Assembly: GCA_021432655.1 (NCBI GenBank)
Contig: MU271459.1
Span: forward strand, 1-61,143
From: Atractiella rhizophila
Lineage: Eukaryota
Reading direction: 5' to 3'
Length of the DNA stretch: 61,143 nucleotides
Below, in pieces: positions 3,628 to 48,437 of the stretch. The translations under genes were made by a program, and so were the position numbers. The notes under the pieces were generated by a model. The model worked only from the letters and a program-made list of their open reading frames with translations, was not told the DNA's origin and did not search any database. Positions within the stretch are counted from its first letter, which is position 1; each line of letters starts with the position of its first letter.

Positions 3628-3722
3628 TAACCCTAACCCTAACCCTAACCCTAACCCTAACCCTAACCCTAACCCTAACCCTAACCCTAACCCTAACCCT
3701 AACCCTAACCCTAACCCTAACC
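3628..3722 (+). repeat. Telomeric repeat (TAACCC)n, ~16 copies, left-end orientation
   Basis: Perfect TAACCC tandem array starting immediately after the gap; TTAGGG is the common fungal telomere unit. Confidence 0.95.
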
Positions 3723-6035: not shown

Positions 6036-7265
6036 ATCCATCACATTTGAGGCATGAGTAGGGCCAACACAAGGGCTGAGAGCCAGCTACGATGACATGT
6101 AATCCTTAATAAGAATGAATGAATATTAAAAAAGCAGAGGACAAAATACGCACCTTATATATCAAAAATTGCACTTCCCCGTTTCTTCGCCATTATCCAG
6201 GGCATTTCGGGCGTAAGTCACGCGAATGGGAGCACCGAAAGCCAGCTACAACAACGTATAATTCTTAATAAGAATGAGAGAATATTTAAAAAAGCGGAGG
6301 TCAAAATACACACCTCATATATATCAAAAATTGCAATTCCCCATTTCTTCGCCATTATCCATCGTATTTTCAACGTAAGTAGCGCGAATTGGAGGCCTGA
6401 GATGTAGGTTTAACGACATGTAATGCGTATTGAGAATGAGTGAATATTGAAAAAAGCGGAGTACAAAATACGCACCTCACATATATAAAAAATTGCAATT
6501 CCCCACTGCTTCGCCAATATCCATCGTACGTTAGGCGTAAGTAGTGCGATTGGGACGACTGATATGTAGCTTGAACGACGTATAATTTTTAATAAGAATG
6601 ATTGAATATTAAAAAAAAGCGGAGTACAAAATACGCACCATATATATCAAAATTGCAATTAACCGTTGGTTCGCCATTATCCATCGTGTTGTAGACGTGA
6701 GTAGGCCTGAGATGTAGCTTTAACGACGTATAATTATTAATGAGAATGAGTTAACATTGAAAAAAGCGGAGGACAAAATACTCATGTCATATACATCAAA
6801 ATATTGCAATTCCTCATTGCTTCGCCATTATCCATAGTGTTTTAGACGTGAGTAGCGTGAATGAGACGGCTGATATGTAGCTTCAAGGGTTTATAATGTG
6901 TATTGAGAATTAGTGAATACTGAAAAAGCGGAGGACAAAATACTAACCTCAGATATATCAAAAGTTGCAATCCCCCATTGCTTCGCCATTATCCATCTTA
7001 TTTTAGACGTAAGTAGCGCGAATGACAGGTCTGAGGTGTAGCTTTGACGACGTATAATTTGTATTGAGGGTGAGTGAATATCAAAAAAAGCGGAGGACAA
7101 AATACGCACCCATACATATCAAAAATGCACTTCCCCATTGCATCACCGTTCTTCTTCGTATTTTAGATGTGAGGGTGGTGGGTGGTGGGTCTGAGGGTTA
7201 GATATCACTACGTATCATGCGTAATAAGAGTGAGCGAACATCAAAAAAAAAGCAAAGGAAAAATA
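6036..7265. repeat. ~161-bp satellite array 1 (~7-8 monomers)
   Basis: AAAAAAGCGGAGGACAAAATACGCACC...CTTCGCCATTATCCATCG...GATGTAGCTT recurs at ~161-bp spacing (anchors ~6127, 6288, 6449, 6613, 6760, 6923, 7084). Confidence 0.9.
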
Positions 7266-7719
7266 CACACAGAGGAGGCGAGGATTTGGGTTGGCGAGCC
7301 AAAGCAAATGCTCGCACGAGCTTTCTCATGTCGTGTTTCGTTTTTGCATGCATATTCCTTCAGCAGGCCACAGTAGTGTTCGCTTCGTGGCAGCTTGGTT
7401 GAATGCTCTCCTCGCGAAGCATGCAAACGTTTTCGCTTCGCGAGAGGTTGCAATCATGCTCGCCTCGCTTGAGCGAGACTTGCAATCATTCTGGGCTCGC
7501 GAGAGCTTGGACTTAACTTCTTTTCGTGAGACCCAACCATTCGCGGCAGCTTGCCCCAATGTTCTCCTCGCGAGAGCTCGCGAACGTTTTTGAGTCGCAA
7601 TTGCTCGCGATCGTGTTCGCGCAGCGACAGCTGGCGAGAATCAGCTTTGTTTCGCGAGAGTTGCAATCTTGTTCGTTCGTGAGCAACCCTTCGCAGCAGG
7701 ACTGTTGCAAACTCGTCGC

Positions 7720-8480
7720 GAGTTTGCTCTCTCGCGAGTTTGCAGTCTCGCATTTGCAGTCTCTCGCGTTTGCCATCTTTCGCGTTTGCAATCTCTCACA
7801 TTTACAGTCTCTCGAGTTTGCATTCTCGCGAGACAGCACATCTCGCGAGGTGGCACCCGAGACACTTTGCAACGAAACCAAACACCTACTCACACCAGCG
7901 GACAGCACTCGTGAGGCAGCATTCGAGCCACTTTGCAACGAACCAACACTTACACAAACCAGCCGACAGCACTCGCGAGGCTACGCATTCGAGTCTCATC
8001 TTGCGAGGTGGCACCCGAGCCACTTTGCAACAAACTAACAACACAACCAGCCGACAGCACTCGCGAGGCTACGAAACCAACCCTCATCTCGCGAGGTGGC
8101 ACCTGAGCCAGTTTGCAAGAAATCCAACACTTACTCACCCACCCGACAGCACTCGTGAGGCAGCGCCCGAGCCACTTTGCAACGAACCAAGACTAACACA
8201 AACCTGCCGACAGCACTCGCGAGGCTACATGCGAACCACTCCTCGGCACCCGAGCCACATCGCAACGAAACCAACACCAAGACAGTCATCTTGCGAGGTG
8301 GCGCCCGAGCCGCTTTGCAACAAATCAACACCACAACTCGCCGGACAACAGTCGCGAGGCGGCACCCAAGCCACTTTGCAGCGAAACCAACACCAACACA
8401 TCCCATCCGACAACACTCGCGAAACGACATGCAAACCAACACCCACACAACATCGCACAGCACTCACGAGGCGACACGCG
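7720..8480. repeat. Short TCTCGCGAG array followed by ~60-90-bp GACAGCACTCGCGAGG...GAGCCACTTTGCAAC repeat
   Basis: 7720-7830 is like the element minisatellite; from 7832 the motifs GACAGCACTCG(C/T)GAGG and CCCGAGCCACTTTGCAACGAA recur about 8 times. Confidence 0.8.
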
Positions 8481-8639
8481 AACCAGTGTCTGAAAAGGAA
8501 TGTGTCTGTCTCTGAAGCAAAAAACAACAAAATAAAAGAGATAGGTATGTGGAAACTTGAATTGTAATTGCACCTCCGACATCAATACACAACGTGTTTT
8601 CCAGTTAGGTCGCATTGTAACGCATGTAATGTTGTTATT

Positions 8640-10757
8640 GGACTGTATAAGATGTAATAATGATGAGTGAACGTAAAAAAAAGCGGAGCAAAAAGATGCA
8701 TCTTCATATATCAAAAACACAATTCGCTATTACTTCACCATTATCCATCACATTTGGGGCGTGAGTAGGGCCAACGCAAGGGCTGAGGGCCAGCTACAAC
8801 GACGTATAATTCTTAATACGAATGAGTTAATATTAAAAAAAGCGGAGTTCAAAATAGGCACCTTGTAAATATCCAAAATCGCAATTCCTCATTGCTTCGC
8901 AATTATCCGTCGTATTTTGGACGTGAGTAGCGTGAATCGGTGGCCTGAGATGTAGCTTTAACTACGTATAATTCTTAATGAGAATGAGGTAACATTGAAA
9001 AAAGCGGAGTTCAAAATACGCACCTTGTAAATATCCAAAATCGCAATTCCTCATTGCTTCGCAATTATCCATCGTATTTTAGACGTGAGTAGCGTGAATC
9101 GGTGGCCTGAGATGTAGCTTTAACTACGTATTATGTGTATTGAGGATGAGGTAACATTGAAAAAAGCGGAGTTCAAAATACGCACCTCAGATATATCAAA
9201 AATCGCTTCGCCATTATCCATCGTATTTTGGACGTGAGTAGCGCGAATCAGTGGCCTGAGATGTAGCTTTAACTACGTATTATGTGTATTGAGGATGAGC
9301 TAACATTGAAAAAAGCGGAGGACAAAATACTCACCTCACATATATCAAAAATCGCAATTCCTCATTGCTTCGCCATTATCCATCGTATTTTAGACGTGAG
9401 TGGCGCGAATGCGAGGCCCTATATATAGCTACAACGACATATAGTTCTTAATAAGAGTGAGTGAATATCAAAAAACGCGGAGGATAAATACGGACCTCAC
9501 ATATGTCAAAAATTGCAATTCCCCGTTTCTTCGCCATTATCCATCGCATTTCGGACGTGAGTCGCGCGAATGGGAGCGCCGAATGCCAGCTACAACGTCG
9601 TATAGTTCTTAATAAGAATGAGCCAATATTAAAAAAAGCGGAGTTCAAAATACGGACCTCATATATGTCAAAAGTTGCAATTGCTCATTATTTCGCTATT
9701 ATCCCTCGTATTTTAGACGTGAGTGGCGCAGATGAGAGGCCCAAGATGTAGCTACAACGACGTATAATTCGTAATAAGAATAAGCCAATATTAAAAAAAG
9801 CGGAGGACGAAATACGCACCTCACACACATCAAAATCGAAATTCCTCATTGCTTCGCCAATATCCATCGTATTTTCGACGTAAGTAGCGCGAATTGGAGG
9901 CCTGAGACGTAGGTTTAACGACATATAATGCGTATTGAGAATGAGTGAATATTGGAAAAAGCGGAGTACAAAATACGCACCTCTCATACCTCAAAAATTG
10001 CAATTGCTCCTTACTTCGCCATTATCCATGGTATTTTAGACTTGAGTGGCGTGAATGGGAGCCCTGAGATGTAGCTTCAACTACATATAATGTGTATTGA
10101 GAATTAGTGAATATTGAAAAGCGGAGGACAAAATACTCACCTCACATATATCAAAAATCGCAAATCCATATTGCTTCGCCATTATCCATCGTATTGTCAA
10201 CATAAGTAGCGCGAACTAGAGGCCTGAGATGTAGCTTGAATGACGTATAATTCTTAATAAGAATGAGTGAATATTAAAAAAAGCGGAAGACAAAATACTC
10301 ATCTGACATATATCAAAAATTGCAAATCCTCATTGCTTCGCCATTATCCATCGTGTTTGAGACATAAATGGTGCAAATGGGAGGCCCAGGATGTACCTTC
10401 GACGTCGTATAATGTGGATTGAGAATGAGGGAATATAAAAAAAGCGGAGGTCAAAACACACACCTCATATATATGGAAAAATGCAATTCCATATTGCTTC
10501 GCCATTATCCATGGTATTTTTGACCTAAGTAGCGCGAATGGGAGGCCTGAGATGTAGCTTTGACGACTTATAATGTGTATTGAGGGTGAGCTAACATTGA
10601 AAAAAGCGGAGGACAAATACGCACCTCTCATATATCAGAAATTGCAATTCCTCATTACTTAGCCTCATGCAATTTTAGATGTAAGTAGCACGAATAAGAG
10701 GTCAGAGATGTAATTTCAACGACGTTAATGTGTATTGAGAATGAGGGAATATTAAAA
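8640..10757. repeat. ~161-bp satellite array 2 (~13-14 monomers)
   Basis: Same monomer as 6036-7265; anchors ~8678, 8836, 8998, 9159, 9308, 9470, 9631, 9792, 9955, 10116, 10276, 10437, 10599. Confidence 0.9.
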
Positions 10758-10759
10758 AG

Positions 10760-12512
10760 TGACTCGCGAGTTAGCTGCTGTCTCGCGAGTTTGCATTCTC
10801 GCTAGTTTGTTGTCTCGTGAGTGTGCTCTCTTGCGTTTCCAGTCTCACGAGTTTGCATTCTCGCGAGTTTGTTGCAGTCGCGTGAGTTTGCATTCTCTCG
10901 AGTTTGTTGCAGTCTCGTGAGTTTGCATTCTCGCGAGTTTGTTGCAGTCTCGCGTTTGCAGTCTCGCGAGTTTGCATTCTCGCTAGTTTGCTCTCTTGCG
11001 TTTGCTGTCTCGCAAGTTTGCTGTCTCGTGTTTGCAGTCTCTCACGTTTGCCAGTCTCGCGAGTTTGCGATCTCGCGAGTAAGTTGCTCTCTCGCAAGTT
11101 AGCAACTTAGCGTTTGGGTTCACCTCGCTAGTTTGCTGTCTCGCGAGTTGGCCGTCTCGTGAGTTTGCTCTCTCGCGGTTGCAGCCTCACGAGTTTGCAT
11201 TCTTGCACGCTCGCATTCTCGCGAGTTTGCTTTCTCGCTAGTTGACCGTCTCGCGGGTTTGCGGTCTCGCGAGTTGGCCGTCTCGCGAGTTGGCACTCTC
11301 GCCAGTTTGCTGTCTCGCGAGTGCTCTCTCGCTAGTTTGCTGTCGCGCGAGTTTGTTGCTCTCTCGCGAGTTAGCAACCTAGTGTTTGGGTTCACCTTGC
11401 TAGTTTGCTATCTCGCGAGTTGGCCGTCTCGCAAGTTTACTCTCTCGCGTTGGCAGTCTCGTGAGTTTGCATGCTTGCGAGTTGGCCACCTTGCGAGTTT
11501 GCTCTCTCGCGTTTGCAGTCTCGCAAGACAGCATTCTCGCTAGTTGACCGTCTCGCGGGTTTGCGGTCTCACGAGTTGGGCGTCTCGCGAGTTGCCAGTC
11601 TCGCGAGTGCTCTTCGCTAATTTGCTGTCTCGCGAGTTTGTTGCTCTCTCGCGTGTTAGCAACTTAGCGTTTCACCTCGCTAGTTTGCTGTCTCGCGAGT
11701 TGGCCATCTCGCGAGCTCGCATTCTCACAAGTTTGCTTTCTTGCTAGTTGGCCGTCTCTCGGTGGTTTGCAGTCTCGCGAGTTGGCCATCTCGCGAGTTG
11801 GCAGTCTCGCGAGTTAGCTGTCTCGCGAGTTTGTTGCCGTCTCGCGAGTTGGCCATCTCGCGAGTTGGCAGTCTCGCGAGTTAGCTGTCTCGCGAGTTTG
11901 TTGCCGTCTCGCGAGTTTGCAACCTAGCGTTTCGGTTCACGTCGCTAGTTTGCTATCTCACGAGTTGGCCGTCTCGCGATTTTGCTCTCTCGCGAGTTGG
12001 CCGTCTCGGGATTTGCTCTCTCGCGAGTTGGCCGTCTCGCGATTTGCTCTCTCGCGAGTTGGCCGTCTCGCGAGTTGGCCGTCTCTCGAGTGTGCTCTCT
12101 CGCGCATCTGCTTTCTTGCAAGCCTGCTCCCTCTCAACTACAGAGGCCCTTCGCAGGTTGCCACCCATTGGTGAACCAAACTTGACCTTTCGCAACTGGA
12201 AGGCACATTGCACGTTGCAGCCAGCCAGCGACCAGAAGTGCCTACTTCGCGACTGGTAGCGAACTTGGCGCCCTCGCGATGAACCTCGCATGTTTGAGCT
12301 TCGCGTCGGCGCTGATCCCCACCTTGCAAGACAATTTGGCCGTCGCGTCAGAGCTGACGGGACTCAACGGTGCGTTCCGTCCCGTCAGGTTAGTTCCGTC
12401 AGTCAGAGCCTCGCGACTGGGCTGACGGGACTCACCCTGGCCCTGACCCTAACTCTGTTCCCCAGCCAAATTTGACTGACGGAACAGTTCCGTCACGAAG
12501 GAATAGTAGTAG
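10760..12512. mobile_element. TCTCGCGAG-rich repeat element (copy 3): ~1.35-kb minisatellite plus conserved terminus
   Basis: Minisatellite 10760-12105; terminal hairpin 12477-12495; ends GGAATAGTAGTAG as in copies 1 and 2. Confidence 0.6.
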
Positions 12513-12838
12513 GGCCTGGAGCCACCTGACCGGGTTCATGACCTCAAGAGGATGTATTTCAGTTAGGTTTGAGTGTCTGCATTTCTTGAGAATCATGACT
12601 GAATGTAATTTCCCCCAATTTCTCTCTTTTACATGGAGTCGACCCTGAATCAATTCGCACTTCTTCATGAAGCTCAAAAGTTCTCTTTGTACAAGTCTGC
12701 ATAGTTCATTTATAGCGCTTTGCCTACGAAACTGTATCAAATGAGCAAGGTCAATGTTTGACCAAATGTAGGTAATGGAGTTCAAGCACTACTCACGATG
12801 GCCTCGTGAATGGGTCCTCATGCCTCTGTCCATCCAGT

Positions 12839-15800
12839 TCAGTGTGCCTCGACCATCGTGATGCATCGGATGGAGTTTGCTCTGCCCTGTGGATCTCCCG
12901 TCGAGATGTACAGCTCCTCTGCCTGCTTGAATCGCTCCAGCGCTTTGTCGTTCCTCCCGCATTGGAAATCGATGAACCCCATGGATTGGATGCAGTTTGC
13001 TCTGCCCTGTGGATCTCCCGTCGAGATGTAGAGCTCCTCTGCCTGCTTGAAGCTCCTCTGCCTGCTTGAATCGCTCCAGCGCTTTGTCGTTCCTCCCGCA
13101 TCGGAAATCGATGTCCCCCATGGATTGGATGCAGTTTGCTCTGCCCTGTGGATGTCCCGTCGAGATGTAGAGCTCCTCTGCCTGCTTGAATCGCTCCAGT
13201 GCTTTGTCGTTCCTCCCGCATCGCAAATCAATGTCCCCCATGCATCGGATGCAGTTTGCTGTGCCCTGTGGATCTCCCGTCGAGATGTACAGCTCCTCTG
13301 ACTGCTTGAATCGCTCCAGCGCTTTGTCGTTCCTCCCGCATCGCAAATCGATCTTCGCAATGGCTTGGACACAGTCTGCTTGGTTTCTAATGCTTGTACT
13401 GTTCTTCATAGAGTCATGCAGCTCTGTTAAGGCTCTACTAGTATACCCTCGAAAATCAAGTTCTTGTCCAAGGTAGAACTGCAAGCGACTCATCATCGCG
13501 GTGGACAACTCCTTTCTTGATAGTATTCTCTGGAGCAGTTGCGTCGTATCAAAGCTCTTGGATTGGAGGATGTTTGCATTTTTCAACACGAATGCTTCAA
13601 TGCTTTCATTCATTTTTGGAAGGTGCAGTAGACTGTCAAAAACGACTTGTTGAAGGTTCACATATTCATCCCTGAACTCCAGTAAGGCGTCTTGCTTCTT
13701 CGCCCCATCAAATTGGTCGATTCTTCCTTGTGCTTTATTCAATAGGCAATTGGTGATGGGCTGAAGAGAATCCTCGACTCGTAAAGAGCATGGGTAGATT
13801 TGCCTCAAAACAAGTTCATTGATATATTTTCGAACTGGTGCGAGCATACGCAAGCGTCTCCTCACCCCAGGAACATTGTCTGCAAGACCAACATCCAGAA
13901 TGGAGTCAAGGGAACGATAATCTCCCGCAAGTAACTCTTTCAAGTCGAAGAGCAGGAGACCATCTGGAGACCAAGACAGAAATGATAAGGCGAGGGAACT
14001 GCCCGGTAGTTCTTTGAGAACGGGAGATGTGAGAGAAAATCTGAGTGATATCTCTAGAGTGGGAGTACCATCTCTGCCATCAGCTTTCTCTGAAAGAACT
14101 GCGTCGGCTCGGTGTTGCCACTCTCTGAGAAGGTCAGCTGCGCTCGAGAAAGGATCGTGACGCGCTCTCAGAGCAAAAAGGCGGATCGATAGTGGATGGT
14201 AATCCAAGCACGATAAAATGTCTTGTGTGACTGCCACATTTTGTGGATCACGACCATTCTCATAGAAGTGACAAAAGGTATTGGTTGCTGCTTCCTTATC
14301 CTCAGTCAGCGTGTGAATGACAACTGGCACAAAGGCAGTGTTGTTCAGGTCGATATGAGGAGCACGATGCCCACGCATGGCAAGGACAAGTATGGAACCT
14401 GCTCCAGATTCCCCAAAAACGGCCTGAAAGAAATGTTGCATCCGTTTCGAATCTGAATGTGCAGGTGTCTCAAAATTGTCCAAGATGAGAAGACATTTAT
14501 TGCTTCGAAAAAAGTGAGCAACGGCCATCAAATCTGTCGTATCCAACTGGCGAGATAGAGTGAAAACACGGGAACACAGATGGCTCTCGAGCGCAGCGAA
14601 GGAAGTGAAGCCGTCACATCGGACCCAAAAGCGTCGCTCAACCCAAAAATCTCCCTCTTGAATTATGAAAGCAGCTTTCACAAGCTCGTCATGTAATGCA
14701 GCAAGTGCGACGGTCGATTTTCCGTTTCCGGCTAAACCTATGATTGCTACGTGCTGGCCACGTAGAATGGCGGTCCGCACATCTTCAACCTCCTTTGTTC
14801 GTCCGTAGCAAAGCCCTCGTGGCGGGACAGATTCTTTCTCATGAACCGCCACTCGTGCGGGATGAGCTGAGGGACATGTCATTACTCCATGCATGGAGGC
14901 GGATAATAAGCGTACCGAGGATTACAGATTCCGCCACGGCCTTCATTTCATAACGGAATCCTTCCAAATGAGCTTTCGTCTGTCCCACCACTTCCTTCAT
15001 CCTCCCAAACTCGTCCCATTCGACACCACCCAGCGTGTCAACGTTGAATCGATGGTAGCAATGGCCAATCCCACGCATTCGCACTTCGTCCTTCATTGTT
15101 TTGTCGACACGAGAGCAGTCTTCGACGACTTTTTTGAAGGCATCCTCGATTTCGTCCGAAGTCGACCCAAGTTTCACTGCGGAACGAATACCAACACCCA
15201 AGGAGAGGAAACAAATAACTTCAATCCCAGCCCCCCAGATCCTCTTCGCCTCTGTCGCAGCGAAAGAGGATGGGTTGTTGTTGCCAAACAGGACGTACTC
15301 TGCCTTGTCGAGAGTGATGGGAGGAAAGAACGTCGGTTCAGCAGATGTCGCTCTCGCAGCTTCGACGATGGAGCACTTGGCAGATCCGCCACCAGAGGGA
15401 AGTCGGTAAGTGCGCATCTCTAAAGGAACTACTGAGTTGGCTCGGTAAGTCGCAACAACAAAGGTTCGACATCGCTTGTCGAAGTTGAAGTTGGGATCAA
15501 GCATCGATCTTTCGAACTGTGGTGCGTGATCCCTGACGATCCTCTTGAAAACGCGTTCAAAGTTTCTGGCGGAATAAGCAGATGAGCCTTCTGTACGAAG
15601 CGTCTTCTCAGAGAAGACCTCCTTTACGATGTCGTCGAAAGCGTGCATACATTCTCGGACAGTCATCCCCAGCCTCCCAAGCATCAAAGCAATCCATCCT
15701 CCGGTCGAAGTGCCGCAGATGAGGTCGAAGAATTGGCATGGTCGAAGGGTTCGGGAGTCTGGCTTCCCAGGAAGAAGATCGGCTACTTGCTCCATAATGG

Positions 15801-16143
15801 CCTCGAGCATGTAAAGGCAAGAGAAGGCACAGACGCCTCCATTGTCGATCGAAAGGATCCGGAGACCTTTGGTGTTAACCTTCTTGATCTCCGCGAGTCG
15901 TATCTGCAAGTCGGGGTCCATCGACCTATTTCTGATGGACTCGGAATGCAACGTGAAAGGCGGAGGGATCTGTTGATTTGATGGAGGAACACTTGGTAGC
16001 GTTACGGGAGGGAACGCGGGTTGTGACGGGTGTAAGTTCAGTTGACTCGCATTCGATTCGTTCTGAAACGAATCAGTCGGTTTTGCAACCTCACGAGATG
16101 TGGAATGACGGACGCGGAAGATGGGTCGGAAAACGTTGTCCAT
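12839..16143 (-). CDS. Fungal NLR-like STAND protein: patatin-like domain - NB-ARC - TPR repeats (apparent frameshift in TPR region)
   Basis: Patatin motifs LRILSIDNGG, DLICGTSTGG, AARATSAEPTFF. A 49-nt GTACGC..CAG intron (14915-14867) joins this in frame to the NB-ARC exon (Walker A GLAGNGKS, Walker B LLILDNFE, PLSIRL). Four 40-aa TPR-like repeats follow. A 19-nt duplication at 13032-13069 shifts the frame. 5' end uncertain. Confidence 0.88.
12863..13361 (-). repeat. Four near-identical 120-bp TPR-encoding repeats
   Basis: Unit RCGRNDKALERFKQ(S/A)EELYISTG(D/H)PQG(T/R)ANCI(RC/QS)MG(D/F)ID(L/F). Confidence 0.92.
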
Positions 16144-16854
16144 GACGTCCACGCTTTTCCGTTCTAACGAAAATGAAGGTCAATACAATATCCCCTTTTG
16201 CATTGCGAGGTGCAGCATGCAATGCTCCATCGTAACAAGCGCAAGTAGGTTGAAAACCAATACCTTAGTCATTCCATAACTCATTCTTGGAGAAGAAACC
16301 TGATTCCAACGACAGCCGCAGGAAGGCTTTTTGGAGGAAGTGGTCACAAGCCCAGAACAACAAACTCAGCTCAAGACAATACTGTCATAGAAGATGAAGG
16401 AAGAATAATGACTTTGTTAAAATCGCACTTGGTACGCTAAAGCCTTCCTCATTCCATCCTCAACTTCAACTTTGTTGCTAATATTCCATGCTTTAATAGC
16501 CTCACTTTATGGCAATGTCGCTCAGCATTTGCTCGGTATGTAAGATGACCCGCCAAAACATGACAGTTTACAGTGACTGGACCGTCTGAGTATCCCATCC
16601 CACCACATACAAACGAGTCTTCGTTCGCAGTTGATCATGAGGAACGCACCTTTGAAGGTATCGATCACAGTTCAGCTCGTTAAGTAACTGCCCTCCTAGG
16701 TAGCTCTAACAGACGCGCATCGATGTTGCTTTCGTCGTCCTTTCGCGAAATTCGAACACTTCAGCATTGATTCGACCATGGCATTCCAGATTTAATGCTT
16801 AACCTTGCTTCTTTTCAATGTTAGTTTGCTCTGCTTTGCCATTGTGTTGGTTCG

Positions 16855-17100: not shown

Positions 17101-17432
17101 TATATGAATTTTAAGTTTTAAACCTGTTTTACCGGTTTTTTGGTTGTTCTGCTGCAAGCGTTTCGTAATTTCATATTTACTTGTTTGCAGCAGAGCAAAC
17201 ATTCCTTTGCATGGTCCAAAACGGCCAGAAAGGGACTTCCGGGTCAGTGCAAACCTAACCTTATGTGGGCCGGCTGCTTAGGGGCCCTAGCCGGCTCAAC
17301 CAAATCACCTTTCCGCCCTGCCAAACAGGCCGAGGCTTGCCGGCATTAGTAGTTAGCGACTAGAACATGGCATGAATGAGATATTCCGGTGGTGCCGGAC
17401 AGAATAAAGGAACATTTTGTTGAACACCCGTG

Positions 17433-18775
<1,343 letters not shown>

Positions 18776-45538: not shown

Positions 45539-48437
45539 TCAACGAGTCCGTTCCGCCTGACTGAGGTAGAAATCGATTGTAAATCTGTTTTCGTCACATC
45601 TTTCCATCCGATCAGCATTGGCTGTGTCAAAATAAACAAGAAATCAAATACTTACATACGCAACATCTGGCTCTGAAAGTCAAGTAACGCCTTCTGTACA
45701 CTCCTAAAAGGTGCCATATATCTCATCGAATTCTCCTTTAAATGCGTCCCATGAGCCTTGAGGATGGCACAGATCCAGACCAGGTGAAATTCCACGTGCG
45801 GGCTTTCTTCCATTTCTTTTGCAATAAACACGAGCAATTTCTCAACGTAGACAATGGGGAGATTTCGACAAATGATAGGGACATCTGTTACTGGTATTTT
45901 GTGATAAACCGATCGGATGATTGGTCGCTCGTTCAGTCGAAATGCCATGACTAGAGCTTTGAGGTATTCCTTATTTGCGGTGGTCGCTTGGATCGAGGAA
46001 GGAGTGATGTCAATCTCCAGGTCGAAAGGATCGAACTCGATCGCTCCATCAAGAGAATAGATGAGTAGACCTTCGGTAGATGCGGCTGCCCAACTCTTTC
46101 CAGCAGGAGAAAACCGTACCGACCTCGTCCTTGCCTCCGGCCTATATTTCCTCTTCGACATGTCACCCCCCTGTGCTCCAGGTAGAAAGTTGTCCAATCT
46201 GTCTTCCAAATCCTCCAGATCGCCTCTTTCATCGATTTCCTCAAGCGGACCAGCTTCGGTCAGCTTTCTGGAGTCAAGATATTCCTGTATGCCATCAAGT
46301 GAAAGGTTCTTGGATATCTGAAACTTCTTCAACAGCAATCCTTCGCGGCACTCATAAAGGCAAATCCACTTCGAACTTCCACCAGCTAGGATCGTGCTCC
46401 CATCTGCGGAATAAGCCAAAGACTCGAAAGCCTTCCCAGCAGCTGAATTTTTCGCAGTCCTCCGATCGTTGACCTTCCTACCACCACTTACATCCTTCCT
46501 TCCCTCCAAAAGTTGAGTCTCCCTCCCGGTATCCACATCCCAGAAAGATATCTCGCCGTCAAGCGTAGAAACAGCGACCTCCTTGCCATCAGGCCGAAAA
46601 GTGACTGCGAGGGCGTCGGATGCGAGCTGAAATGTCTGTGTATTCTTGTTCCGGGAGTAGAGGTCCCATAACCTTACCGTCTTGTCCCAGGAACAGCTCG
46701 CCATCTTGTCACCCATCGGCGAAAATGCGAGGCAAGAGACTGGTGCTTCGTGCCCAACCAAGGTTTCGAGGAGCTTTCCCGTCTGCACAGACCAGACATA
46801 GATGTCGAATGCGTCTCCAGATCCACCGGCGCAGACAACATCGCCGCTTGGATCTACTGCGAGACTTGTGAACTGCACAGGGGTGGGAGAGGTAAACGTC
46901 CTGAAATTACGGTAGCGTATCAAGTCAAAGGCTCGGACGGTCCCATCGAGAGAAGAAGAGAAGATGACCGTTCCGTTCTTCGAGAAAGTGACGGTGGAAA
47001 TGGAGGAGGTATGTTCGGAGAAAGTAACAAAGTTGAACCCGGATTCTACGTTCCACACCTTCACCTTTCCGTCCTCTCCACCAGTCACGATCCTCTGTCC
47101 GTCAGGCGAGTAATCTAGAGAGTTCATGCTATAGTAATGACCCTGCTGCTTGAGAACATAGCTTTCCGAAGCCCATTCCCATACCAGTAATTGCCCCATC
47201 TTGGCGGCGCCAAAGGCGAGCCATTCTCCAGTAGGATTAATAGTCACGCTAGTAATTTTTTCGGAGGAGATAGAGAGGGTATGGATCACCGGAAGGGTCG
47301 GAGTAGATGAAGCGAGGGAAATGTCGAAGAGGGAAAAGATGCCATGACTGTATCCTACGACGAGGATGTTGGATTTGACATGAAAAGTGACGCAGGAAAC
47401 ATAGGCTGGGCTCTGGGGGAAGAAGTGCTTTGCCTTAACTCCCCACCTGGTTCTCGCAACAGCATTTTCCCCCATATCTTCATCCACTTCCATTTCTGAA
47501 TCATCTGACAGCTCAGAATCCGATGAAGACTTCTCCCGCTTTGCTTGCCACACTAACAGTGCGCCGTCTCTGGAGACAGTATAGATAGTCTTCTGATCTT
47601 GAGAAAAATAAGCGGCGAGCACGGAATCTCGGTGACCAGAGAATGTTTTTGGACGGAAACCAGGAAGAGGATTGAGGGTGTAAAGTTTAGCTGTATTATC
47701 CTTGCTGGCGGTGAGGAAACATCTGCAATTTCCTCAGTTTCAAGGAGGAGAGAGAGAAAAGAGAAAGAGACGAACCGTGAATCAGGGCTCCATGTGATGC
47801 TTGAAACATCATCGTTATGTCCCGTGTAGGTTCGATGAAGTTTGAACGGCGCAAATTCGCGAATAAGGAGTGACGGAGTCTTCCATACCTGAATGTGTTG
47901 TCCGTGGGTGACAGAAATATACCTATCCATGTGCAAAACAGCTTTCTCAGCGAAAGTACAGAGATTCAATCGAGGGGACGCACTTTCCATCAGGTGAGAA
48001 CTGAATGTCCTCCACGGGCTTCTTGAAATTGATGTGTCCTAGGACCACTCCTCTCTGATAATTCACCAGAAGGGCTCGACCATCTACGTAGAGAAGATTA
48101 GTAAGTTTAGAACAGTAACAGCAGCAGACTCGCCTTCGTCTACAGGTATGAGTGTTCTGCCATCTGGGCTCAATGCAATCCGCTTAATGTTCTTCGCATT
48201 TTGCGGCTCTAACGTGCGAGTCTTATTCCTTTCTTCCACTCCACATGAGCATCATTTCTTCCCAAAACGGGGTATAAAAAAATGAGAATGGGGAGCATAC
48301 CGCACCAAATCGAAAGATCCAACTCTGTTCCCAAGTGGCGAGATCACGTTGTTCCCATCAGCAGTAAAAAGTAAGTTTCCAGCTGTATAGACTGTTCCTA
48401 GGAGATTCTGGAAACGATAGGCACTGGAGGATGCCAT
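45539..48437 (-). CDS. PWP2: Periodic tryptophan protein 2 (Utp1), WD40 SSU processome subunit; multi-exon
   Basis: YRFQNLLGTVY..GNLLFT, GEWLAFGAAKMGQLLVWEWASESYVLKQQGH, DGTVRAFDLIRYRNFRTFTSP, FDPFDLEIDITP, ALVMAFRLNE. Confidence 0.96.

Follow-up and report, generated by a model that had tools for sequence, protein, structure and literature searches.

On one scaffold of Atractiella rhizophila, what does the outermost gene, next to the terminal block of satellites and telomere repeats, encode, and is it still able to work? The scaffold, contig MU271459.1 of assembly GCA_021432655.1, is 61,143 bp long, makes up the whole stretch studied (hereafter the window) and comes from a root endophyte of the Pucciniomycotina (Basidiomycota). 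With a probability of roughly 60%, the gene is one copy of a multi-copy family of NOD-like receptors (NLRs) of the patatin-STAND-TPR type, with a non-canonical output and a copy in the window that is probably disabled. On one spliced frame it carries the tripartite order of fungal NLRs: a patatin domain, an nSTAND1/NB-ARC-like nucleotide-binding and oligomerisation domain (NOD) and a tetratricopeptide (TPR_12) array. Its features are given below.

14916–16143, minus strand: exon 1, its open reading frame (ORF) open, with a low-complexity N-terminal region followed by the patatin-fold domain.
14867–14915, minus strand: intron of 49 nt (GTACGC...CTCAG), GT..AG, spliceosomal, phase 1.
16063–16113, minus strand: tentative candidate for a second intron, 51 nt, in-frame GT..AG, in the N-terminal low-complexity region.
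14917–15882, minus strand: patatin-fold domain, 322 residues, with the Pfam match at about 15292–15840.
13401–14867, minus strand: STAND NTPase module with P-loop GLAGNGKST, Walker B LLILDN, and winged-helix and helical parts.
12842–13385, minus strand: TPR sensor array of 40-residue (120-nt) units at 13385, 13265, 13145 and 13006, then a degenerate last unit of 15 residues.
13032–13069, minus strand: perfect 19-nt tandem duplication (2 x 19 nt) inside TPR unit 3, a +1 frameshift.
12839–12841, minus strand: stop codon of the TPR frame, whose ORF 12839–13405 ends in ...FKQAEELYISTGDPQGRANCIQSMGFIDFQCGRNDKALERFKQAEELYISTGDPQGRANSIRCITMVEAH; the product is 1078 residues if there is a single 19-nt copy.
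12789–12791, minus strand: stop codon of the assembled frame; the product is 1101 residues, the final 86 out of frame.

Two minus-strand ORFs, 14839–16179 (446 codons) and 12789–14921 (710 codons) measured from stop to stop, overlap by 83 nt and form a single gene. Its first methionine is the ATG at 16143–16141 on the minus strand, aligned with the methionine of paralogue P0004. Removal of the 49-nt intron joins ...AESVIL in frame to AHPARVAVHEKE... (exon junction between AESVIL and AHPARVAV), and paralogue P0005 is unbroken over this site (AESIILAAHPHRVAVHEKE). When P0005 was searched by tblastn, its residues 45–418 aligned to 16011–14914 and its residues 418–626 to 14870–14244 in the other frame. 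A 434-nt contig from sequencing set X3 joins 14866 to 14916, omitting exactly the 49 nt of the intron. This contig has 41 differences from the window and, being about 9% diverged, derives from a paralogue or another strain; a homologous intron is spliced somewhere, which does not imply transcription of the window copy. The intron of about 56 nt in the PWP2 gene (P0130) of the same window indicates that 49 nt is a normal intron size here. The candidate second intron corresponds to one low-depth X3 contig joint (16062 to 16114, side 27), and the protein models of P0004 and P0005 keep the matching stretch.

In the soil metatranscriptome run X4, two contigs (151 and 180 nt, depth about 2) are identical to 15402–15703 with 0 differences, a hint that the window sequence or an identical copy is present in soil RNA preparations, although they could be DNA carry-over. 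Set X3 has no cover over 13204–14007 and X4 covers 6 of 30 bins, and nothing is concluded from either gap. No protein of the locus was found among annotated proteins of 390–1243 or 782–2230 residues.

The N-terminal domain matches Pfam Patatin (PF01734) with E 4.3e-14 and 53.6 bits, above the gathering cut-off of 27.7. Searched against longer proteins, the patatin ORF gave 929 matches at E<=0.001; the 120 matches listed are fungal, from ascomycetes and basidiomycetes, are 31–39% identical, and mostly combine the domain with NB-ARC or NACHT and with TPR, ANK or WD repeats. The nearest solved sequences are the CBASS CapV phospholipases (8zr9; phmmer E 4.9e-12). An AlphaFold (AF2) model built on 28 sequences, with a predicted local distance difference test score (pLDDT) of 82.2 and a predicted TM-score (pTM) of 0.86, was placed by Foldseek close to CapV (query TM-score, TMq, 0.77) and potato patatin (1oxw, TMq 0.76).

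The active site departs from the canonical one. Its columns were read from a profile alignment of 124 patatin domains, in which the nucleophile Ser of the GxSxG motif occupies its column in 121; the window protein has it as GTSTG. The Asp of the dyad stands in its column in 120 of the 124 and is gone from the window protein, P0004 and P0005 through a common two-residue deletion (EYV--LFGNNNP vs EYVDGGxGxNNP); the fourth domain without it, that of P0002, does not reach the column. When aligned to CapV, the window protein has an F opposite the CapV Asp. The window and P0005 (2 of 117 sequences) have DNGGVCA as their anion-binding loop, where the others have DGGG[IV]RG; the three altered columns carry G, R and G in 115, 114 and 113 sequences. 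GTSTG is kept in all three Atractiella sequences, as are the ATSAEP and NNP motifs. The text available from PMC8593000 describes GxSxG and DGG/A as the catalytic dyad and DGGGxxG as the anion element, and calls the Ser-Asp dyad essential for patatin activity. Because the Asp is deleted and the anion loop degenerate, canonical lipase activity is improbable for the domain of the Atractiella clade, and the output of the clade is probably something other than canonical phospholipid hydrolysis.

The central module, a divergent STAND NTPase, matches Pfam nSTAND1 (PF20703; E 2.1e-7, 32.0 bits against a cut-off of 27.1) and stays below the cut-offs for NB-ARC (PF00931; E 0.13, 11.9 against 23.5 bits) and NACHT (13.2 against 26.7 bits). 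Of 7 scanned members of the NB-ARC-testing family set, 4 match NB-ARC with E no higher than 1, the best at E 9.1e-9. An AF2 model of the NOD, built on 7 sequences (pLDDT 76.8, pTM 0.78), has full-length Apaf-1 (3sfz) as its top Foldseek match (E 1.4e-9, TMq 0.62), followed by the NRC1 NB-ARC domain, NRC2, CED-4 and ZAR1, with no NACHT protein in the best 50 rows. The predicted fold is that of an AP-ATPase/NB-ARC module (nucleotide-binding domain, helical domain and winged helix) with Walker A and B motifs. The nearest named clusters in the ESM Atlas (scores 0.97–0.98) are NB-ARC with nSTAND1/nSTAND3, or basidiomycete NB-ARC/nSTAND1-TPR families. A phmmer search of the NOD against sequences of the Protein Data Bank returned rows at chance level (best E 0.0043, to protein A repeats), which were discarded.

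When 1.84 billion representatives were searched with a profile, many relatives appeared that match it best over the NOD; the profile has 1065 positions including TPR columns, and its 147,693 hits (E<=0.001) are not the size of the NOD family. Of 25 NOD relatives scanned, 8 contain NB-ARC and 10 nSTAND1; as their N-terminal domain 5 have MLKL_N and 5 have SIR2_2, and none has patatin. The presence of MLKL_N and SIR2_2 on these relatives indicates one NOD-TPR chassis paired with varied effector domains. Effector swapping on a common chassis is usual for fungal NLRs.

The C-terminal array matches TPR_12 with E 5.3e-14 and 52.6 bits (cut-off 30.1). Tandem Repeats Finder (TRF) reports a period of 120 with 94% matches and a period of 139 with 97% matches, and the units are spaced by 120, 120 and 139 nt. 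Units 2 to 4 differ at 2–7 of 40 residues by hand count, one pair being slightly less than 85% alike. Measured against the definition in PMC4986451, as far as its text was available (units more than about 85% alike over at least 100 residues), these are TPR repeats of high internal conservation, with that one pair slightly under. The differences between units are concentrated in the first helix (unit positions 2, 7–8, 11, 14–15 and 38), a clustering like that described for highly conserved fungal NLR repeats in the same source.

Within this array the assembled gene is broken. TRF finds a period of 19 with 2.1 copies and 100% matches at the duplication (tract 13032–13070). The assembled frame reads ...ERFKQAEEL and then 86 unrelated residues to the stop at 12791–12789, while TPR coding carries on in the other frame with ...YISTGDPQ, one full unit and GRANSIRCITMVEAH to the stop at 12841–12839. 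The coding content as assembled thus amounts to about 3.3 TPR units and 86 nonsense residues. Exon 1 (1228 nt) and exon 2 (2075 nt) give 1101 codons as assembled and 1078 without one 19-nt copy, and the span 12839–16143 with one intron has a length that is not divisible by three. The lesion is young, since the units past the break match the upstream units at 97%. Because this recent duplication shifts the frame of the TPR array as assembled, the likeliest status of the window copy is that of a young pseudogene or of a null or truncated allele. Two other explanations for the 19-nt site, programmed frameshifting and a further intron, were rejected, as the site lacks GT..AG and is much shorter than the 49–56-nt introns found here. 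The indel table of the DNA runs X1 and X2 holds no contig with a 19-nt omission at the site; the bins have depth and the listed pieces do not span 13032–13070. This is a weak negative.

These results bear directly on the earlier note made on this DNA. Its proposal that the two overlapping ORFs are one gene joined by a 49-nt intron is borne out by the in-frame join, the unbroken P0005 and the X3 contig that omits the same 49 nt, albeit in a copy about 9% diverged. The open gene span of 12839–16143 that it gave does not hold as assembled, where the duplication shifts the frame and moves the end to 12789. It had described an effector-NOD-sensor architecture of the PLP-1 type, and Patatin, nSTAND1 and TPR_12 all score above their Pfam cut-offs. 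Of the Pfam domains it had named, Patatin and TPR were recovered and nSTAND1 was found in place of NB-ARC; the NB-ARC label survives for the predicted fold, which resembles Apaf-1 and plant NB-ARC, and fails at the Pfam threshold. For its comparison with cell death triggered by PLP-1, the domain order agrees, but lipase-dependent killing cannot simply be assumed of a protein without the catalytic Asp. As for decay, which it had named as grounds for doubt, the ORFs are long and open, but the TPR array is frameshifted as assembled.

The gene has close relatives elsewhere in the genome. Its NOD-TPR part is most similar to five A. rhizophila proteins encoded on other contigs (P0003 81%, P0004 79%, P0005 78%, P0001 66% and P0002 41% identical), and the next match is an Exidia protein at 28%. 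Three of the five paralogues are marked partial. P0001 and P0005 are nearly identical over their shared stretch, which implies that some duplications are recent. The locus therefore belongs to a multi-copy NLR-type gene family of A. rhizophila with at least 6 loci. Sequencing contigs give a similar impression: 561 contigs of DNA run X1 lie on the locus, 157 of them at least 99% alike, 178 at 95–99% and 226 at 90–95%, and 83 fit two places; DNA run X2 also has many diverged contigs there. Third codon positions account for 14 of 26 coding differences among copies (hand count, 40 of 301 rows), a weak hint of constraint among the copies.

Two further observations concern family members. P0002 (1235 residues, on another scaffold) carries about 13 more divergent TPR units, and its C-terminal extension contains a BAG domain (E 3.5e-9), which is either a gene-model fusion or a genuine extra domain. 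One X2 contig has telomere repeats (AACCCT)n fused straight to family coding DNA at 15792, which suggests that a copy cut within the patatin region and capped by telomere repeats exists somewhere in the X2 data set.

The surroundings of the gene resemble those of a chromosome end, and contain the following elements.

12105–12513, plus strand: dispersed element of about 400 bp abutting the 3' side of the gene, also at 1–360 and 990–1375 (repeat families D11 and D13).
10776–12104, unstranded: 16-nt satellite array of TGCAGTCTCGCGAGTT, about 83 copies (TRF), also at 374–968 and 7716–7832 (families D1, D2 and D4).
8663–10758, unstranded: 162-nt satellite array, 13 copies (TRF), with a second array at 6100–7249 (families D3, D5, D6 and D9).
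3628–3722, plus strand: telomere-repeat tract (TAACCC)x15.8, 95 bp, 100% matches in TRF.
17349–18775, minus strand: ORFs for an SMC/RecF-type head (AAA_23 E 9.1e-12, SMC_N E 3.6e-7).
45652–47733: exon of PWP2 (P0130), 693 codons, 100% identical over 100% to an A. rhizophila protein.

The telomere tract has the orientation of a left chromosome end, yet lies 3.6 kb inside the scaffold; either the chromosome end was healed or extended, or an assembly join lies here. It lies about 9 kb from the 3' end of the gene, with satellites alone between. The locus is subtelomeric in character, given the telomere tract and the satellites between the gene and the scaffold end. The dispersed element is a high-copy repeat: summed contig depth over 12400–12533 is about 15,000, against about 250–700 over unique parts of the gene, and the element stops abruptly at 12512/12513, where X1 shows 12+5 different continuations and X2 shows 8. 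The earlier note's placement of the gene in a repeat-rich chromosome-end setting and in a basidiomycete is upheld, and its fast-evolving compartment fits a multi-copy, recently duplicating family. Of the flanks it had described as repeat and transposon-like DNA, the repeats are there as satellite arrays and a telomere tract, and the transposon-like part found no support: no transposase, reverse transcriptase or integrase match occurs in the 12 + 11 + 67 flank ORFs scanned with Pfam (ORFs of at least 60–70 residues).

The DNA outside the telomere tract (1–1375) is a composite of the element and the 16-nt satellite, the same composite that abuts the NLR gene. The 162-nt satellite is AT-rich, with 6.7 copies at 6100–7249 and 13 copies at 8663–10758 (78–79% matches), and no coding signal was found in either array; other short repeats lie between them at 7433–8485. 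On the gene's other side, the SMC-like ORFs take up just some 1.5 kb between the NLR gene and a GCN2-like gene. A complete SMC protein would need more room, and the gene may therefore be a truncated one where the core region begins. To the right of this fragment lie genes for a GCN2-type kinase, AIP3/Bud6 and Tma16. A SNARE/SNAP-25 (sec-9-like) match was absent from 67 of the 107 ORFs of at least 60 residues at 16.2–31 kb, a scan that short exons could escape; the other 40 ORFs, which stood outside it, are antisense or overlapping within the GCN2 and AIP3 genes.

The closest functional reference is PLP-1 of Neurospora crassa, with its counterparts HET-Z1 of Podospora anserina and the patatin NLRs of Botrytis and Cryphonectria. 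The window protein shares with PLP-1 an N-terminal patatin-like domain, a central NTPase of NB-ARC type and C-terminal TPR repeats, and its patatin domain is 31–39% identical to the 120 listed fungal patatin-NLR proteins. It differs from PLP-1 in lacking the dyad Asp and the canonical anion loop, in an NTPase that fails Pfam NB-ARC and matches nSTAND1, in TPR units that are 40 residues long and near-identical, and in its Pucciniomycotina host and frameshifted copy. PLP-1 and SEC-9 form a genetically linked pair in Neurospora. Here, no SNARE or sec-9-like gene was found among the 67 of 107 ORFs scanned within 15 kb on the gene side, and the other side is satellite DNA. In the available text of PMC12881547 and PMC10197012, PLP-1 is described as oligomerising and as needing its P-loop and patatin domain for cell death.

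Other known systems resemble single parts of the protein. CapV (8zr9) and potato patatin (1oxw), the closest solved structures to the N-terminal domain, share the GxSxG nucleophile elbow; unlike the window protein they own the DGG/DGA Asp and the GGGxRG loop, and they are stand-alone enzymes rather than NLR domains. The predicted NOD fold, with Walker A and B, is like those of Apaf-1, CED-4 and plant NB-ARC proteins (3sfz, 2a5y, 8bv0 and 6j5t), the best match being ADP-bound Apaf-1, but sequence identity is just 14–16%, the Pfam NB-ARC threshold is missed, and at the place of the MHD His the sequence seems, by eye, to have L-A-P. Like HET-E, HET-D and the TPR/ANK NLRs of Dyrka et al. 2014, the window gene has near-identical tandem units (94–97% at the DNA level) with few variable positions and belongs to a multi-copy family. 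Near-identical repeats are reported as enriched in fungal NLRs and subject to repeat shuffling in the part of PMC4986451 available, which also gives 42 residues for most fungal NLR TPR motifs, against 40 here. Unlike fungal NLRs with highly conserved repeats, the window gene has only 4.4 units, and a slippage-type 19-nt duplication breaks its frame.

By analogy with PLP-1 and other NLRs, the TPR array would bind a self or non-self ligand, the NTPase would then exchange nucleotide and oligomerise, and the clustered N-terminal domains would act on membranes or signal cell death. On the same analogy the locus may serve non-self recognition, in allorecognition or defence.

Several points weigh against the reading of the gene as a disabled copy of a receptor family with a non-canonical output. 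The spliced contig comes from a copy about 9% diverged, and the X4 contigs, at a depth of about 2, are possibly DNA carry-over; neither demonstrates transcription of the window copy. The loss of the Asp is read from sequence, and another acidic residue might replace it; conservation of the catalytic Ser, ATSAEP and NNP is unexpected for a dead enzyme. The NOD model was built on just 7 sequences. Finally, the duplication is known from the assembly, in which repeat arrays like this one easily go wrong, and both ORFs are otherwise fully open, such that the gene may be intact in the organism.

That last point leads to a possible, though doubtful, alternative: the organism would have a whole, working gene, the 19-nt duplication would stem from a mistake in assembly or consensus or be a variant carried by one nucleus, and the product would be one of about 1078 residues with 4.4 TPR units ending at 12839. 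The two long ORFs are free of other lesions, identity between the units on the two sides of the break is 97%, and the array is repetitive and multi-copy with ambiguous contigs, 83 of 561 in X1 fitting two places; the end coordinate of 12839 in the earlier note also agrees with this model. A clean 19+19 nt event is, however, typical of slippage and not of homopolymer-type sequencing error. The X1 and X2 indel table lists no 19-nt omission at the site despite depth, although the absence of a row proves little, and no annotated protein of the locus was found in the length ranges searched. The effector raises a second alternative, an unlikely one, in which the patatin domain has retained its lipase activity and the protein kills just as PLP-1 does, by hydrolysing phospholipids. 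The predicted patatin fold (TMq 0.77 to CapV and 0.76 to patatin), the GTSTG, ATSAEP and NNP motifs kept in all three Atractiella sequences, and the dependence of PLP-1 cell death on its patatin domain, as described in the available text of PMC12881547, would fit it. It has to contend with the deletion of the dyad Asp in 3 of 3 Atractiella sequences, where all 120 others have D, with the change of the anion element from DGGGxRG to DNGGVCA, and with a dyad that PMC8593000, in the text available, calls essential.

The same losses can also be taken further, to a family that is a decaying subtelomeric relic without receptor function or that has a non-immune signalling role, its NLR-like architecture inherited and unused for non-self recognition. 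Two of three catalytic motifs are gone from the effector domain, the window copy is frameshifted, 3 of 5 paralogue models are partial, one contig fuses telomere repeats to family coding DNA at 15792, and no sec-9-like partner turned up in the 67 of 107 nearby ORFs scanned. This is considered quite improbable, as several paralogues keep long open frames (1235 residues in P0002), P0001 and P0005 are near-identical recent duplicates, and third positions hold 14 of 26 differences among copies by hand count. The TPR units are also homogenised, with their differences in one helix, as in the active fungal NLR sensors described in the accessible part of PMC4986451. The preferred reading thus remains that of a receptor family with a non-canonical output, represented in the window by a copy that is probably disabled.

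The patatin-NB-ARC-TPR class is itself already well known. What is new is the host lineage, the family-wide loss of the dyad Asp, the near-identical 40-residue TPR units and the young frameshift in the window copy. In the available text of PMC4986451, the 2014 survey of fungal NLRs reports zero NLRs in Pucciniomycotina and names NOD divergence as a possible cause. Nothing relevant on NLRs in Pucciniomycotina was found in the literature beyond that source, and later surveys may list these proteins; PMC9815663 mentions neither Pucciniomycotina nor Atractiella in its main text and the 10 supplementary files searched (4 others lay outside the search).

Few fungal NLRs have been demonstrated to act in cell death; the patatin-NB-ARC-TPR receptors, through PLP-1, belong to these few, and the same chassis is now found in Pucciniomycotina. 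The window NOD does evade the Pfam thresholds for NB-ARC and NACHT, which may be compared with the suggestion of NOD divergence in that group. The family-wide loss of the catalytic Asp provides a natural way to ask whether signalling by a patatin NLR depends on lipase chemistry. More speculatively, the family could be a lineage-specific Pucciniomycotina NLR family with a pseudo-lipase patatin executioner (Ser kept, Asp and anion loop lost) that diversifies at chromosome ends by repeat slippage. If this were true, the activated receptor would send its signal or harm membranes through oligomerisation or binding instead of lipid hydrolysis, and the 19-nt duplication would be a snapshot of diversification by repeat slippage. 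Beside its satellites and telomere tract, the frameshifting duplication shows how such sensors are made and broken.

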